From positions 1 through 4,648 of the IMG/VR virus record IMGVR_UViG_2645727715_000001: a stretch of 4,648 nt of DNA; one strand, written 5' to 3'. The stretch is from a virus (taxonomy: Duplodnaviria > Heunggongvirae > Uroviricota > Caudoviricetes). This document shows, in pieces, positions 1 to 4,648 of this stretch (within the stretch, counting starts at the first letter, position 1; each line of letters opens with the position of its first letter). The notes under the pieces are model-generated. The model had not been told where the DNA came from. It worked only from the letters and a program-made list of their open reading frames with translations, and did no database searches. The position numbers and the translations under genes were made by a program.

Positions 1-303
1 CTACTGGATGAACGGGAAAGGAACCAGCAATACATCAAATCCCGCGACCAGGAGAACGAGGATATTGCGCTAACGGTAGGGAAGTTGCGCGTTGAGCTTG
101 AGGCAGAAAAACAGCGGGCAAAGGATCTGTTTATGGAAAATGCTCGGCTTAAGTCAGGTATAGCCGGTCTGATACACCTCGGTATTCGATATGCAGATGT
201 TGATGTCATGAAAATTGCTGGAGATGCCCAGCTTTCTACCCCATGCACTGACAGCATCATAAACAGCATTGCAACAGGCATTCGCATCAACGGAGGTGAG
301 TAG
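1..303 (+). CDS. 5-prime-truncated ORF continuing upstream of the window; hypothetical prophage protein, C-terminal ~100 aa with a charged helical stretch (LRVELEAEKQRAKDLFMENARLKS)
   Basis: Frame 1 is open from base 1 with no stop until TAG 301-303; the tool ORF 85-303 is only its TTG-initiated tail. Same strand and orientation as all downstream genes. Confidence 0.55.
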   Translation, partial: LLDERERNQQYIKSRDQENEDIALTVGKLRVELEAEKQRAKDLFMENARLKSGIAGLIHLGIRYADVDVMKIAGDAQLSTPCTDSIINSIATGIRINGGE

Positions 304-479
304 TGCGTGTGGCATGTATTGGCTTGTTACCGTACCCGACTCGTTTTTGGGCTTCTGCGCTAATTGCAAAGCCACAGGTCCTGATGGCTGACAACATCAC
401 CCCAGCACCAAAGCGCCGCCATACCGGTATTGCAGCGGCACGACGAGCAGCAAAGAGACGCAGGAGAGCAAAGCGATGA
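303..479 (+). CDS. Possible small ORF (58 aa, GTG start) with hydrophobic N-terminus and strongly Arg/Lys-rich C-terminus (AARRAAKRRRRAKR); below the 60-aa cut-off of the ORF track
   Basis: GTG at 303 overlaps the upstream stop (taGTG) and lies 6 nt after GGAGG (292-296); frame 3 is open to TGA 477-479, which overlaps the ATG of the next gene (ATGA). It fills an otherwise unusual 172-nt gap in a coupled operon. Alternative ATG at 384. Confidence 0.3.
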   Translation: MRVACIGLLPYPTRFWASALIAKPQVLMADNITPAPKRRHTGIAAARRAAKRRRRAKR

Positions 480-664
480 AAAACCGTAAAGCAAAGATTC
501 TGTTAGTTCGTAGAAACGCTCCTGGCGTCTGGCAGTGGGTGAGACTCAGCAACCGACGGATGGGGTTAATGAAACATTACGGGATGATGGATTGTTGGTT
601 TTGCAAAAAGCCCAGCGCGGCGCAAAACCGCTGGAAAAACCACTTGCGCACTAAAGGAGAGTGA
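476..664 (+). CDS. Small very basic protein, 62 aa (16 Lys/Arg vs 2 Asp/Glu); possible nucleic-acid-binding protein, function unknown
   Basis: ATG 476 preceded by AGGAG (462-466) at 9-nt spacing; stop TGA 662-664 followed 1 nt later by ATG 666 of the next gene. Confidence 0.55.
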   Translation: MKNRKAKILLVRRNAPGVWQWVRLSNRRMGLMKHYGMMDCWFCKKPSAAQNRWKNHLRTKGE

Positions 665-670
665 TATGGC
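653..670 (+). repeat. 18-bp gene-junction repeat AAAGGAGAGTGATATGGC, copy 1 (stop of ORF 476-664, RBS and start of ORF 666-1181)
   Basis: Exact identity with 1553-1570, read directly from sequence; both upstream proteins end in KGE. Confidence 0.9.
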
Positions 671-1181
671 GTTAACACACCGCGAACTCTGTCAGATTGC
701 GTACAAGTTCCTTAAGCGCAACGGGTTCAAGGTTTGTTTTCATGACCGCTTTATAGCTGTAACCAGTACCGGAGAACAGCCAGATGCTATGGGATTCAGA
801 AATTCAGCATCATGCCTGATAGAGGCGAAATGTTCTCGTGCTGACTTGTTGGCAGATAGAAAAAAGCGTTTTCGTAAAAATCCGTCTCTTGGAATGGGCG
901 ACTGGCGATTCTTTATTAGTGAGCCGGGAATTATTTCAATTGAGGATTTACCACCTGGCTGGGGATTACTTCACGTTGTTAACGGAAGAGTACGGAAAGT
1001 ACATGGGTGGCCCAAGGGTAATTGCTGTTGGGGTAATCCTGACGATAAGCCATTTACTGGAAATAAGCAGGTTGAATGCGATTACATGTTATCTGCATTA
1101 AGGCGTATGGAGTTGAGAGGGCACCTTAATGAAATATATGACGGTGTAATTGTTAATAAGAAAGAAGGAAACGCGGCATGA
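666..1181 (+). CDS. Putative PD-(D/E)xK-fold nuclease-like protein, 171 aa, with Cys/Trp-rich C-terminal region (GNCCWGNPDD...ECDY)
   Basis: ATG 666 with AGGAG 6 nt upstream. N-terminal region shows E7, P39-D40 followed by hydrophobic residues, then hydrophobic-IEAK (E53-x-K55) followed by a basic helix (RADLLADRKKRFRK), the classic spacing of a PD-(D/E)xK core. Stop overlaps next start (ATGA at 1178-1181). Fold assignment is motif-based only. Confidence 0.7.
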   Translation: MALTHRELCQIAYKFLKRNGFKVCFHDRFIAVTSTGEQPDAMGFRNSASCLIEAKCSRADLLADRKKRFRKNPSLGMGDWRFFISEPGIISIEDLPPGWGLLHVVNGRVRKVHGWPKGNCCWGNPDDKPFTGNKQVECDYMLSALRRMELRGHLNEIYDGVIVNKKEGNAA

Positions 1182-1564
1182 TCACTATTACCAAAGAGCG
1201 ACTGCTGACAATCAAGCAGTGGCGCGAAACATACGGACCTGGTAGCAACGTTGTACTGCCAGCAGAAGAAGCGGAAGAACTGGCACGGATTGCGCTGGCA
1301 TCGCTGGAAGCAAAACCAATAGGTGCTTTCCACATTGCAGAACAGCAGGTCGATGGCACAAGTGACTACATCAAGGATGGGGAGTGGCCTATTGATAATG
1401 GAATTATTGAGGTCTACGCCGCTCCACCCGTTCCAGTAGTACCGGAAGAAAAACCAATGCCTAATCCTCTTAGCATGTACGCGGTTGATGCTGTTGCCGC
1501 TATTGCAGAGGTGAGAGGCTGGAACGCCTGCCGCGCTGCAATGCTTCAGGGAAAAGGAGAGTGA
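1178..1564 (+). CDS. Hypothetical phage protein, 128 aa; paralog of the N-terminal half of the downstream 315-aa protein
   Basis: ATG 1178 overlapping upstream stop; GAAGGA 1164-1169 as RBS. Shares MxTITxE start, ELARI(A/V)LASLEA(K/E)P and (V/L)Y(A/T)(A/T)PP(V/A)P motifs with ORF 1772-2719, including a 34/35-nt identical DNA stretch. Confidence 0.75.
   Translation: MITITKERLLTIKQWRETYGPGSNVVLPAEEAEELARIALASLEAKPIGAFHIAEQQVDGTSDYIKDGEWPIDNGIIEVYAAPPVPVVPEEKPMPNPLSMYAVDAVAAIAEVRGWNACRAAMLQGKGE
1277..1311 (+). repeat. 35-bp in-frame repeat, copy 1 (GAACTGGCACGGATTGCGCTGGCATCGCTGGAAGC)
   Basis: 34/35 identity with 1937-1971; encodes ELARIALASLEA. Confidence 0.9.
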
Positions 1565-1570
1565 TATGGC
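1553..1570 (+). repeat. 18-bp gene-junction repeat AAAGGAGAGTGATATGGC, copy 2 (stop of ORF 1178-1564, RBS and start of ORF 1566-1775)
   Basis: Exact identity with 653-670. Confidence 0.9.
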
Positions 1571-1775
1571 TATTGCCGCAAGTTACACAATGCATCTCTA
1601 TTGTGACTGCCGCCAGTGTACGGAAGGTGTATATCCAGTGCCAGACTTCGGTGAGTATATAGGTACGTCATGGGCTGGCTGTGCAAAAGAGGCGCGCAAG
1701 GATGGCTGGCGAATAAAGCAAAGACAAACGCGTGCTTTTGCGCCTGGGCATAAAGTTTTGAGGATTAACAAATGA
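1566..1775 (+). CDS. Small Cys-rich protein, 69 aa (C13-x-C15-x2-C18 ... C39); possible zinc-ribbon-like protein
   Basis: ATG 1566 preceded by the same AAAGGAGAGTGAT junction as gene 666-1181; stop TGA 1773-1775 overlaps ATG 1772 of the next gene. Confidence 0.6.
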   Translation: MAIAASYTMHLYCDCRQCTEGVYPVPDFGEYIGTSWAGCAKEARKDGWRIKQRQTRAFAPGHKVLRINK

Positions 1776-2719
1776 CCACTATTACCAGAGAACAAGCTCT
1801 GAAAATTATTGAGGCAGCCGATGAGGTTATTAGTGCGCTGGCCGGAACTAACGAGGATGTTCACCCTGGTAGCGATAACATGCTACGCCTGTGGGATGAC
1901 CTGAATGACCGTTACGCGCCGCCGGAAATTGTGCGTGAACTGGCACGGATTGTGCTGGCATCGCTGGAAGCCGAGCCTGTTCTGTATCAGTCCTGCACTC
2001 GCCCCACCTGGAATAGCGGTGTTCCGTGGACGGAATGGAAAGAACGAAGTCGTGAGTGCTACGAAGACGATTTGCGCTTTACAGACACGCCTGACCATGC
2101 CGGTTGGATATACAAATGTCGAAAACTATATACCACTCCGCCAGCGCCGATAGCGTTAGAGGCCATTGAAAACGCAATTGAATACATCCGCAGTATCGCT
2201 TTTCACATCGATGAAGACGATTACCACGGCAAACATATTGCGTATTTCATGCAGCAAGCATTGGCCTGGCTGGAAGGGCATTCATGCAGCGACGACAGAC
2301 TGGGTAAAGCCGAGAATCAACCAGTACGCGGCAACCAGGCTGCCGAATCCAATCGCGATAATGAGTGGACTGGCAATCCTGATATTGATAACGCCATCAT
2401 CATGCTCGACCGCATAGATACGCTGGAAAATTGCGATGATGACCGTATTGAGGCTGTTAAGGCTGTTTTGCGTAGACTGGCTGGCAACTATCCGGTAATT
2501 CCGGATGGTTGGATAAGCTGTAGTGAGCGAATGCCTGAGAACATTCCCGGAAGTTGTAAAGAGTATCTGGTGTTTGATGGGCTTAATAATAAAGTTCATC
2601 ACGATTACTGGGTTGTCCCTGATGGAGACAGTGCGCCAGTTGCGTCGTTCTGGAATCATTACGGGGCACATGTAACTCACTGGATGCCTCTACCAGAACC
2701 GCCGCAGGAGGCGAAATGA
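1772..2719 (+). CDS. Phage protein, 315 aa, with C-terminal DUF551-like domain (family recalled from memory) and N-terminal module shared with ORF 1178-1564
   Basis: ATG 1772 with GAGGA 7 nt upstream. C-terminus IPDGWISCSERMPE...KEYLVFDG...HHDYWVV...FWNHYGAHVTHWMPLPEPP matches my recollection of the DUF551 pattern found in enterobacterial prophage proteins. Longest ORF in the window. Confidence 0.85.
   Translation: MTTITREQALKIIEAADEVISALAGTNEDVHPGSDNMLRLWDDLNDRYAPPEIVRELARIVLASLEAEPVLYQSCTRPTWNSGVPWTEWKERSRECYEDDLRFTDTPDHAGWIYKCRKLYTTPPAPIALEAIENAIEYIRSIAFHIDEDDYHGKHIAYFMQQALAWLEGHSCSDDRLGKAENQPVRGNQAAESNRDNEWTGNPDIDNAIIMLDRIDTLENCDDDRIEAVKAVLRRLAGNYPVIPDGWISCSERMPENIPGSCKEYLVFDGLNNKVHHDYWVVPDGDSAPVASFWNHYGAHVTHWMPLPEPPQEAK
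1937..1971 (+). repeat. 35-bp in-frame repeat, copy 2 (GAACTGGCACGGATTGTGCTGGCATCGCTGGAAGC)
   Basis: 34/35 identity with 1277-1311; encodes ELARIVLASLEA. Confidence 0.9.
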
Positions 2720-2976
2720 TGGATGTAAAAGAGAAGGTTTTGCAGGTGATGCGTTCCCGGGCTGCCCTGCAAGATAAAGCTCTCGGCGGGAAATATCCAT
2801 TCAGGATGGCAACCTGGAATCTGCGGTTGGCAATGGAGAAGGAATTTCCTGATGAAGAATGGCGTTCGGCAGATTTGCGCAAAATTCTTATGGAGATGGC
2901 TAAAGATGGAACAGTATCCAAAGATACCCATGCCAGCCGGATTGGTCAGGCGGTATGGAGACTGGAGGTGAGGTAA
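2716..2976 (+). CDS. Hypothetical small phage protein, 86 aa
   Basis: ATG 2716 overlaps upstream stop (ATGA) with strong AGGAGG (2705-2710) at 5-nt spacing; stop TAA 2974-2976. Confidence 0.65.
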   Translation: MMDVKEKVLQVMRSRAALQDKALGGKYPFRMATWNLRLAMEKEFPDEEWRSADLRKILMEMAKDGTVSKDTHASRIGQAVWRLEVR

Positions 2977-3050
2977 TAAGCTGGCCTGAAGCATTTGCGA
3001 TTGTAGGCGTAGCTATGGCGATTGCCGCTATTTTTATCTTCTGGGGGTAA
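2955..3050 (+). CDS. Candidate unannotated mini-ORF, 31 aa, single predicted transmembrane helix (METGGEVISWPEAFAIVGVAMAIAAIFIFWG)
   Basis: Frame 3 ATG 2955 to TAA 3048-3050. It exactly fills the only untranslated gap between 2976 and 3053, and its stop sits 2 nt before the ATG of the next gene. No good SD for ATG 2955; GGAGGTGAG at 2964-2972 is downstream of it. Speculative. Confidence 0.25.
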   Translation: METGGEVISWPEAFAIVGVAMAIAAIFIFWG

Positions 3051-3052
3051 CG

Positions 3053-3268
3053 ATGGGAAAATTAACTTTTGTAGTCGAATTTGAGGATGGCAAAGAGCCA
3101 CCTGTTAGCGCCAATCTTGATGTTGCTGGTGGCAGGCTGGTTTCGGTTCTATTTGGTGATTACCGCGACGACTTCTTTCAGCCTGAAGAAGTTGATGTAG
3201 TGCGAGAAGCATTAAACGAGCTAAGTGTTGATAACGATGATGCTCATGCGGAAATCATCAAAAAATGA
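3053..3268 (+). CDS. Small strongly acidic protein, 71 aa (17 Asp/Glu vs 7 Lys/Arg); candidate DNA-mimic or anti-defence-type protein (hypothesis only)
   Basis: ATG 3053 preceded by GGGGGT; residue composition counted directly from the translation; stop TGA 3266-3268. Confidence 0.65.
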   Translation: MGKLTFVVEFEDGKEPPVSANLDVAGGRLVSVLFGDYRDDFFQPEEVDVVREALNELSVDNDDAHAEIIKK

Positions 3269-3332
3269 ACTGACTACTCACTAAATTATCAATTATGGTG
3301 CTATCACCTACGACACCGAGAGAAAATTTATA

Positions 3333-3455
3333 ATGTCAAAAGTAAATGTTTTGATTTTTTCAGCAATTGTTGGCTTTGGTTTTACTGCCGGAGTGCAGAT
3401 TTATATTACGTGGGAAAAAATCATCAACTACGAATGGAGTTGTTTTATTAAGTGA
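3333..3455 (+). CDS. Candidate small membrane peptide, 40 aa (MSKVNVLIFSAIVGFGFTAGVQIYITWEKIINYEWSCFIK), one hydrophobic helix
   Basis: Frame 3 ATG 3333 to TGA 3453-3455 in the AT-rich segment. Ends 7 nt before ATG 3463, and its 3-prime end contains the GAGGT that would serve as RBS for the next gene. It competes with the TTG-initiated N-terminal extension of tool ORF 3367-3756. Confidence 0.35.
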   Translation: MSKVNVLIFSAIVGFGFTAGVQIYITWEKIINYEWSCFIK

Positions 3456-3462
3456 GGTAAGT

Positions 3463-3756
3463 ATGTGGAGAGGTAATAATCATGGCAAAAGCCAGATGAT
3501 ACTTACCGAATATAAGCTAGACCACAAAACCAATAAATCACGCTCAGTATATTTGCTCCGGCACAATAGCCGCGTAAGAAATACCGTGCTGGAACAAAAT
3601 CTGACAGTTGAAATGGATAATTGCGGGGGATTCAAGCCAACAATTTCGCTTGATGATTTTCCTCGTGGTTTAAGCGAAAGAGAAGCAATGCTGAAATTAG
3701 CAGAATGGCTACAAAGATTAAGCATTGCTATTGAAGATAACTGGTCTGAACCTTAA
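3463..3756 (+). CDS. Hypothetical protein, 97 aa if started at ATG 3463 (tool call 3367-3756 uses an upstream TTG)
   Basis: Frame 1 ORF ending TAA 3754-3756; ATG 3463 has GAGGT (3454-3458) upstream, though at short spacing; alternative in-frame ATG at 3496. Followed by a perfect hairpin-forming palindrome at 3789-3805. Confidence 0.5.
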   Translation: MWRGNNHGKSQMILTEYKLDHKTNKSRSVYLLRHNSRVRNTVLEQNLTVEMDNCGGFKPTISLDDFPRGLSEREAMLKLAEWLQRLSIAIEDNWSEP

Positions 3757-3788
3757 ATTTATATGATGACACTAAAACATTTTCTTGA

Positions 3789-3805
3789 CCGCCCATTATG
3801 GGCGG
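3789..3805. repeat. Perfect 17-bp palindrome CCGCCCA-TTA-TGGGCGG (7-bp GC-rich stem, 3-nt loop); possible RNA hairpin or dimeric-protein binding site
   Basis: Read directly; located 33 nt downstream of stop 3756; a TTGACC hexamer (3785-3790) abuts it. No U-tract follows on either strand. Confidence 0.6.
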
Positions 3806-3990
3806 CAGCCGCAGGCTATGACTTTAATTATATGGATTGCATGTCTTGTACTGCCAATGCATACGACCATTCGTTCATCCTGCTGTTTAATTCTTTAAGA
3901 ATATTGCCGGAAACAGTATTTCTTAGGTGATGGAATGACTGATATTGCCAAAATGAACATTGAAGAATGGACTAAGGAATGTGAAAAGAA

Positions 3991-4162: not shown

Positions 4163-4552
4163 TTGAATTTTGAGCAGTGGCTGGAACAGCAACGCGGGAA
4201 AATCGATGTGGACTGTGGTTGTGTGTCCACTGAAACATTCATGCACTGGCTGCGGGTAGCTTACGAGGCTGGCAACTATCCGGATATTCCGGATAGTTCG
4301 GCGCAAGCACCAGGGAAGGGGGGGCTTCCCCGGAGAGCGGATTCGAATTAAGCCGCATGTTTACCGTGAACTGGTTAACCGCCTCCACGATACAGCGATC
4401 AAGTGTGCTGGCACCCAGCAATTACGGGAAAGAATTAGCCGCGTTTTTGGCGAAGTTATTACACCAGATCGTCATAAACAAGCCGAGAAAAGCGGTCTGG
4501 AAAGGAGTCATCTTGAAGCGGCATTAAACATTAAACCGGGCAGTACGCTAGT
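4163..4552 (+). pseudogene. Frame-disrupted or mis-sequenced gene: frame 2 ORF (4163-4351, TTG start) continues without any start codon in frame 3 from 4260 to the end of reliable sequence
   Basis: Frame 3 is open from 4260 onward but has no ATG/GTG/TTG; the frame 2 to frame 3 switch coincides with a G7 run (4318-4324). Deleting one G would join the two into one ORF (...APGKGGFPGERIRIKPHVYRELVNRLHDTAIKC...). Confidence 0.35.
4276..4296. repeat. 21-bp inverted repeat CTATCCGGA-TAT-TCCGGATAG (9-bp arms); also a direct repeat of TCCGGATA
   Basis: Read directly; lies inside ORF 4163-4351, encoding YPDIPDS. Confidence 0.5.
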
Positions 4553-4648
4553 GGGGAAAAATTTTTCCCCGGGAAAAAAATTTTTGGGGTTTTTAAAAAA
4601 ACCCCAAAAAAAGGGGCCCCCTTTTAAAAAACCCCGGGTTTTAAAAAA
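4553..4648. other. Low-complexity homopolymer-stutter tract (GGGG AAAAA TTTTT CCCC GGG AAAAAAA ...), most likely sequencing or assembly artefact at a contig/read end rather than genomic sequence
   Basis: Every base occurs in runs of 3-7, cycling through all four nucleotides for about 96 bp to the end of the window; nothing like this occurs in the preceding 4.5 kb. Confidence 0.7.

Follow-up and report, generated by a model that had tools for sequence, protein, structure and literature searches.

A micro-gene of the widespread phage family WPEAF probably occupies an unannotated gap in an SJ46/P1-like operon

The gap between two small, closely packed phage genes in the DNA analysed here (a stretch of 4,648 nt, hereafter the window) can be attributed with good confidence to a genuine protein-coding micro-gene of a widespread phage family, named WPEAF in this analysis, whose product is a predicted single-helix membrane peptide. 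Judged from its sequence features, this product is most likely a translationally coupled, single-pass inner-membrane peptide belonging to the phage early programme. The first-pass annotation had proposed that the gap contains an unannotated small membrane protein of 31 codons; the proposal of a small membrane protein is supported at the family level, whereas a 31-codon gene beginning with ATG2955 is not. The features referred to below are the following:

2716..2976, plus strand: upstream gene, 86 aa, phrog_2814 (1.6e-52), no known function
2955..3050, plus strand: 31-codon ORF starting at ATG2955, with METGGEVI ahead of the core
2964..2968, plus strand: Shine-Dalgarno (SD) core GGAGG, 7 nt upstream of 2976, in the last codons of the upstream gene
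2976..2978, plus strand: start-codon position of the family, ATA in the window and ATG in relatives (TAATG stop/start overlap)
2976..3050, plus strand: conserved core of 24 codons plus TAA, (M/I)SWPEAFAIVGVAMAIAAIFIFWG, with the full signature W-P-E-A-F..V-G.A.A.A
2982..3047, plus strand: one predicted transmembrane helix (Trp10-Gly31 in the 31-aa numbering)
3043..3055, plus strand: junction to the next gene, with GGGGG as SD, TAA at 3048-3050, a 2-nt spacer and ATG 3053
3053..3268, plus strand: downstream gene, 71 aa, phrog_3876, no known function

Operon context and the reading frame in the gap

According to the list of open reading frames, the window is a single long plus-strand array of closely packed small genes. 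It is evidently DNA of an SJ46/P1-like phage-plasmid: identity to the E. coli plasmid pEC13-3 is ~99% over 2307-3916, and identity to Salmonella phage SJ46 (Punavirus, a P1-like phage-plasmid) is 97% over 2678-3916. It maps to a long run of small accessory genes, all in one direction, that lies upstream of hot/humD/phd-doc. The earlier claim about the junctions holds: the successive frames 303..479, 476..664, 666..1181, 1178..1564, 1566..1775, 1772..2719 and 2716..2976 are joined by 4-nt overlaps or 1-nt spacers, and when the mini-ORF is left out, an untranslated interval of 76 nt (2977-3052) indeed remains. The same interval, 76-85 nt in length, is unannotated in pEC13-3, SJ46 and pF1273-3.

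The neighbouring genes of the window provided no functional clue, as all of them correspond to PHROGs of no known function, plus one DUF551. Relatives of the gene at 2716..2976 are annotated as hypothetical or as 'eaa protein'. The product of the gene at 3053..3268 has 71 aa in the window versus 77 aa annotated in relatives, and it is shortened because of homopolymer indels near 3265-3276, where the window differs from pEC13-3 by single bases (A6 versus A7, G versus GG). These indels are probably read errors, and caution is therefore needed with other frameshifts in the window.

Several additional observations concern the same stretch. The genes at 1178-1564 and 1772-2719 share a related N-terminal module (MITITKERLL…ELARIALASLEAKP versus MTTITREQAL…ELARIVLASLEAEP), and both match phrog_60, phrog_3323 and phrog_5117, with the DUF551 end present only in the second. 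A second small hydrophobic ORF (3333-3455, 40 aa, MSKVNVLIFSAIVGFGFTAGVQIYITWEKIINYEWSCFIK) lies in the next intergenic gap and has a weak SD (-3.0 kcal/mol); its equivalent is annotated in SJ46 (J46_0090, 123 nt) and was skipped by PGAP in pEC13-3 and pF1273-3. The last ~100 bases of the window (4550-4648) consist of successive runs of 4-8 identical bases (GGGGAAAAAATTTTTCCCCGGGAAAAAAA...), and homology to pEC13-3, SJ46 and pF1273-3 ends at 4549; this segment looks like a sequencing or assembly artefact and not biology.

The mini-ORF itself is present as it was originally described: a plus-strand frame opening with ATG2955 encodes 31 aa (METGGEVISWPEAFAIVGVAMAIAAIFIFWG), overlaps the 3' end of the gene at 2716..2976 by 22 nt out of frame, and terminates with TAA at 3048-3050, 2 nt ahead of ATG 3053. 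Its hydrophobic stretch has the highest 17-residue hydropathy among the 61 six-frame ORFs of the window (mean Kyte-Doolittle value 2.77). The SD of ATG3053 (-9.7 kcal/mol) is formed by GGGGG, which falls within the Trp-Gly codons (TGG GGG) of the micro-gene, and the TAACGATGGG junction is common to all P1-like relatives. An ORF filling the gap also arises in 9.3% of 20,000 dinucleotide shuffles of the gap, and by itself such an ORF is therefore not significant. Related sequences, though, lift the mini-ORF far above chance.

Conservation of the WPEAF family and the start codon of the window copy

The mini-ORF evidently belongs to a family of micro-proteins with the signature M-[ST]-W-P-[ED]-A-F-x-x-V-G-[IV]-A-x-A-x-A followed by a hydrophobic helix, usually encoded by 27 codons. 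Relatives were gathered in two collections. A DNA pattern scan of viral contigs produced 128 places with ~39 peptide variants, and at all 128 places the ATG lies 6 nt ahead of the Trp codon; a second, motif-based scan yielded 242 confirmed relatives. The fetched loci of both collections were pooled into 118 distinct genomic contexts, which represent copies with an intact WPEAF motif, since the searches needed this motif or its DNA and copies broken there would escape. Across these contexts, the frame, the start position, the SD and the stop are kept, i.e., the frame proposed from the window alone turned out to be conserved in related phages. At 6 nt ahead of the Trp codon, 111 contexts have ATG, five have ATA, one has GTG and one is broken; the ATGA stop/start overlap occurs in 111/118 contexts, an SD core 4-16 nt upstream in 115/118, and a length of exactly 27 codons in 102/118. 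Loci at which the frame is broken while the flanking genes are intact would have spoken against a gene, and these were limited to rare exceptions, namely, two frameshifted copies (L070 and L106) and two read-through extensions (L081 and L103).

A profile built from the window peptide and six relatives was used for an HMM search against 1.84 billion representative proteins, in which 74 representatives sharing the N-terminal signature were found at E<=1e-3, with 21 at E<=1e-10; a homology search with the natural 45-aa variant P0026 returned only 6 close relatives. In 47 cores thinned to <70% identity, W3, P4 and G11 are invariant, the commonest residue at E5, A6, F7, V10, A13, A15 and A17 accounts for 72-98%, and the C-terminal half is variable. 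Some members (P0103, P0076, P0088 and P0070) carry hydrophilic tails of 20-50 residues. In P0042, P0043, P0044 and P0047, the helix contains GCNATG/GCNGTN repeat expansions (…IAMAMAMAMAVAL…) and is longer by 4-8 residues, which suggests slippage-prone coding repeats.

The pattern of substitutions was assessed in 38 distinct intact 27-codon DNA variants using Nei-Gojobori pN/pS. Third codon positions are the most variable (entropy 0.66 versus 0.32 and 0.26 at positions 1 and 2), and pN/pS in the ORF frame is 0.36 overall and 0.33 outside the part covered by the search pattern. In the other two sense frames, pN/pS ranges from 0.89 to 1.93, and stops are present in 35/38 and 38/38 variants. The amino acid sequence is thus evidently under purifying selection. 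Moreover, the motif is written as TGG CCA CAA GCA TTT in contigs of 35-38% GC versus TGG CCC GAA GCC TTC in contigs of 62% GC; the same residues encoded by different codons across GC backgrounds exclude a conservation confined to the DNA. All variants also have an open mirror antisense frame, with a pN/pS of 0.42; this is an expected mirror artefact because the wobble positions are shared, and the first start codon and the extent of the antisense frame differ by context. The antisense ORF 2946..3101 is therefore not supported as a real gene, as neither its start nor its length is conserved. Folding of 2960-3070 gave an RNA structure no better than that of shuffled sequences (z = 0.01), an Rfam search found no match in the gap, and the single weak hairpin resembling a terminator (3015-3031) is no more than shuffled sequences would yield (0.7 expected).

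Where does translation of the micro-gene start? The GGAGG at 2964..2968 has an SD:anti-SD duplex energy of -10.6 kcal/mol, and only 0.7% of window positions score equally well. In the alignment, SJ46 and pF1273-3 read TAATG versus TAATA in the window; in these relatives, an ATG overlapping the stop of the preceding gene begins the same frame as the window core, and in the window the TAA stop of the gene at 2716..2976 (2974-2976) overlaps the same family start position. The SJ46 product is MSWPEAFAIVGVAMAIAAIFIFWG (24 aa), and the pF1273-3 product is MSWPEAFTTVGIVMAAALGLYSICRWW (27 aa); pF1273-3 has many base differences and a 9-nt in-frame insertion, and the hydrophobic helix is nonetheless kept. 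The model of 31 codons from ATG2955 does not fit these data: the conserved start is at 2976, 21 nt further on, and the SD of ATG2955 reaches -4.8 kcal/mol, a value attained by 20% of window positions. As ATG2955 has a weak SD and is not conserved, the native product should have ~24 codons and not 31. A 31-aa product is possible from the ATA allele but would not represent the conserved gene.

The window core (ISWPEAFAIVGVAMAIAAIFIFWG) contains every invariant or near-invariant WPEAF residue except the initiator Met, and an SD core lies within 4-16 nt upstream. The copy departs from the family pattern at both ends: the stop/start junction reads TAATA in place of an ATGA or TAATG overlap, and instead of 27 codons with a basic C-terminal residue (…CRWG), the window-type peptide has 24 codons, three below the norm, and ends with FIFWG without the conserved C-terminal Arg. 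The loss of Arg and of three codons could reflect relaxed constraint in the lineage of the window. The ATA allele represents a single G-to-A change, and the ATG version exists on the same background. In SJ46, an in-frame TGA separates the ATG2955 position from the core, whereas this frame is open in the ATA allele, in which ATG2955 is the sole remaining conventional in-frame start (ATG, GTG or TTG); the TGA-closed upstream frame was seen only with ATG alleles, among small numbers of related copies.

The window copy would accordingly appear either to have weak expression, initiated at ATA by way of the intact strong SD or at ATG2955 to give 31 aa, or to be a recent start-loss allele. The strongest competitor of the main interpretation is the second of these options, i.e., that the micro-gene of the window is a recent pseudogene, silenced by the ATG-to-ATA change with too little time for decay, and that the gap is effectively untranslated. 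We consider this a serious possibility, albeit not the favoured one. ATA at the family start is confined to the lineage of the window (5/118 contexts), the remaining ATG2955 has a weak SD, three codons and the conserved Arg are already missing, and the downstream gene has its own SD and does not need the mini-ORF. On the other hand, the allele is common, with 119 complete E. coli records matching 2940-3075 at >=99%, and no further damage is visible: the full signature is present in all copies, and upstream as far as ATG2955 the frame remains open. In addition, an ATA codon behind a strong SD and beside a terminating ribosome can give low-level initiation.

Genomic contexts of the WPEAF gene

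The WPEAF gene is carried by the virulent phage Av-05, by Stx/lambdoid phages (933W, VT1-Sakai) and SJ46/P1-like phage-plasmids, and by distant phage contigs with GC contents of 35-62%. When 2940-3075 served as a blastn query, many E. coli prophages proved to have the core behind a DUF551 gene, and of the 5,426 complete E. coli genomes, hundreds gave a match to the query core. The gene is present and unannotated in 933W, Stx2 II, VT1-Sakai, SJ46, ArgO145, vB_EcoS-666R9 and Av-05; indeed, all annotated records examined (reference phages, PGAP-annotated plasmids and chromosomes) omit it. The prophages of K-12 are not known to contain the relevant ea-type genes. The strict DNA pattern was found at two places only in genome contigs, a count that has no bearing on taxonomic range. 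The only match outside Escherichia genomes (L132; JQCU01000559.1, 369 bp, from an Acinetobacter idrijaensis assembly) is probably contamination by enterobacterial DNA.

The surroundings of the gene are variable. In 933W, it lies just upstream of sokW/hokW, with ~150 nt separating it from the start of the next annotated gene; the VT1-Sakai copy precedes xis-int, with xis ~400 nt downstream. By gene order, WPEAF occupies the distal end of the ea regions of both these phages. ArgO145 and 666R9 have an oppositely oriented gene after it, and in the virulent myovirus Av-05, the WPEAF gene fills an 82-nt gap and ends 2 nt ahead of the next gene. In general, the preceding gene is DUF551, ORF86, Ea22-like, HTH or another gene, and the following genes are hok/sok, xis-int, DUF4222 or phrog_3876. 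Distant members are likewise found within arrays of overlapping small phage genes, for example, behind a Cro-like HTH gene, ahead of a DUF3799 gene or close to a homologue of a phage ejection protein. Together with megablast matches that break at ~2977 and ~3041, flanking the core, this distribution indicates that the WPEAF gene is an independent mosaic module. The upstream partners are too varied to infer a specific partner.

One of the junctions recurs in different combinations. The 3' end of DUF551 (…LPEPPQE..*, GGAGG followed by ATGA; window 2690-2722, L005, L006, L042 and others) is a conserved coupling junction that carries different downstream genes, namely, ORF86 in the window and the WPEAF ORF directly elsewhere; megablast homology blocks begin at this junction, which therefore suggests a mosaic recombination joint. 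A DUF551 fusion was also considered and rejected: a 27-aa peptide that clustered with 121-aa DUF551 proteins proved to be a clustering artefact, and those proteins do not contain the peptide. In-frame fusions of an Ead/Ea22-like protein to the WPEAF peptide do exist in P0055 (143 aa) and P0058 (206 aa). In such contigs (among them L239, 156-776), the Ead/Ea22-like frame runs into the peptide without a stop, and a DUF4222 gene comes next; the protein predicted from the fusion is soluble and carries a WPDAF helix at its C-terminus.

In O157 and O26 prophages, WPEAF is followed by an annotated 34-aa hydrophobic ORF and then by hokD. This ORF (MSDDISLAMEGALAVVAVVGVYCLVVFLMDRLGN; 932-1036 of both L004 and L005, O26 and O157:H7 prophages) lies ~40 nt after the WPEAF ORF, and in Stx-type prophages the WPEAF ORF, the 34-aa ORF and hokD form three consecutive genes for small membrane peptides.

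Predicted peptide and its possible role

The AF2 model of the 31-aa reading contains one helix at residues 10-30 with a pLDDT of ~95, and the METGGEVIS extension has lower confidence and no helix. After the helix, the 47 cores show a basic excess (K+R 2.1 versus D+E 0.9). According to the positive-inside rule, an N-out/C-in topology is suggested, in which the short acidic N-terminus (M-S/T-W-P-E) probably faces the periplasm and the basic C-terminal end probably faces the cytoplasm in most members. The small-residue face V-G-x-A-x-A-x-A would suit helix-helix packing.

No significant match to WPEAF peptides was found in Pfam, NCBIfam, PHROGs, PADLOC or PDB. The nearest scores were 14.7 bits to KdpF TIGR02115 (cut-off 26.85), obtained for one family variant only and not for the window peptide, and 16.4 and 14.0 bits to Pfam DUF7512 and DUF883_C, below the gathering threshold of 27; the PHROGs phrog_4493, phrog_4612 and phrog_38566 aligned with the hydrophobic stretch only, at non-significant E-values of 0.01-0.18. 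The 31-aa sequence of the window was absent from a collection of 15 billion proteins by exact look-up. Family members have nevertheless been deposited as 'hypothetical protein' or 'bacteriophage protein' (AOM45384.1, ASL59204.1, EIL24003.1, ETJ68712.1, UVY42991.1 and RefSeq WP_250221393.1), and none of these entries has a name, a domain or a publication. UVY42991.1 (24 aa, SJ46-type) is the window core with Met for Ile at position 1, and WP_250221393.1 (45 aa) has been lengthened to an out-of-frame ATG further upstream, similar to the 31-codon model. The WPEAF motif was not found in the full-text papers searched, nor in the supplementary material of three small-ORF surveys (Hücker 2017, Fesenko 2024, Sberro 2018).

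WPEAF appears as an uncharacterised member of a familiar kind, the small phage membrane proteins, and three groups of known systems are useful for comparison. KdpF, AcrZ, MgtS, PmrR and Caulobacter SidA are non-enzymatic peptides of ~25-50 residues with one helix that bind larger membrane proteins. WPEAF is of comparable size and has an invariant small-residue helix face, but it shows no sequence relationship to them and, unlike them, is phage-borne and translationally coupled in early operons. Lambda Kil, Qin DicB and P1 Icd are products of small, non-essential, mosaic accessory genes of early-left operons. WPEAF is found in the same kind of operon, whereas these proteins are soluble or peripheral and unrelated in sequence and WPEAF is a predicted integral helix. 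The type I toxins (Hok/Gef, TisB, DinQ, ShoB and Ibs) are likewise short, hydrophobic and located on mobile elements, and hok adjoins WPEAF in some prophages; WPEAF differs from them in having no evident antisense RNA or translational lock, with a strong exposed SD and coupling to the upstream gene.

These similarities raise the question of whether the peptide is a membrane-damaging toxin (type I or holin-like) that kills or arrests the host upon early gene expression. Its size and hydrophobicity resemble those of TisB, DinQ, ShoB and Ibs, and in Stx prophages it adjoins hok/sok loci and another 34-aa hydrophobic ORF. Nevertheless, we regard this explanation as unlikely. The Hok/Gef and other toxin models of Pfam, NCBIfam and PADLOC gave no match, and the adjacency to hok varies by context. 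The Hok-type arrangement of an overlapping leader ORF and an antisense RNA with folded mRNA was not detected either (no Rfam match, z 0.01), and the strong SD is unshielded. In addition, the invariant small-residue face suggests specific packing over bulk disruption.

Still less probable, in our opinion, is that translation of the ORF serves solely as a coupling bridge between the two flanking genes, handing ribosomes on to the downstream one, and that the peptide is functionless. A bridge would agree with the 5' stop/start overlap and the 3' spacer of 2 nt seen in the P1-like context and in Av-05, and with the final codons that double as the SD of the next gene. However, purifying selection acts on the peptide, which is conserved across backgrounds of 35-62% GC, and the ORF is kept without a close following gene in 933W, VT1-Sakai, ArgO145 and 666R9; conservation of the peptide in such contexts makes a pure bridge role unlikely. 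Finally, it is scarcely credible that the gap contains no sense gene at all, either as a chance frame in a spacer with a terminator or an RNA or DNA signal or as a by-product of a real antisense ORF, since the shuffled gaps (9%), the hairpin and the open mirror frame that could favour this view are largely overruled by the comparative family data, with the hairpin count and the fold being similar to those of shuffled sequences, Rfam giving no match in the gap, and the antisense frame having no conserved start or length and a pN/pS that is low by the mirror effect.

Taken as a coupled micro-gene, WPEAF may operate as follows. The canonical gene has 24-27 codons, and its ATG, located 7-10 nt after GGAGG, overlaps the stop of whichever gene precedes it, so that ribosomes ending the upstream gene could reinitiate at the overlapping ATG (translational coupling). 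The peptide would be made alongside phage early or accessory genes and would insert into the inner membrane with the N-out/C-in orientation. Its invariant small-residue face may pack against another helix, and the peptide could then bind or perturb a host membrane component. In the P1-like context, the last codons (TGG GGG) form the SD of the next gene, and translation of the micro-gene may aid that gene. Among possible functions, we rank modulation of a host membrane component first, followed by toxin-like membrane perturbation and then by a role as a coupling bridge only.

A more far-reaching idea, which we consider rather doubtful, is that WPEAF represents an unrecognised class of phage micro-effectors whose G-x-A-x-A-x-A face docks on a conserved machine of the host inner membrane. 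If this were true, such effectors would be conserved from low-GC to high-GC phages, including Shiga-toxin phages, and their targets could be, for example, components of division, transport or DNA entry; host physiology would be altered or rival phages excluded, and the Ead/Ea22-like fusions (P0055 and P0058) would mark membrane tethering of neighbouring early proteins.

Regardless of function, a conserved gene has been systematically missed by standard pipelines, including in the medically important Shiga-toxin phages 933W and VT1-Sakai and in the records of P1-like phage-plasmids examined. The WPEAF signature can be used by annotators, and the peptide is a compact candidate for phage-host membrane interaction. 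The ATA allele, in turn, may serve as a natural experiment on how important it is, to the phage-plasmid and to downstream gene expression, that the micro-gene is translated.
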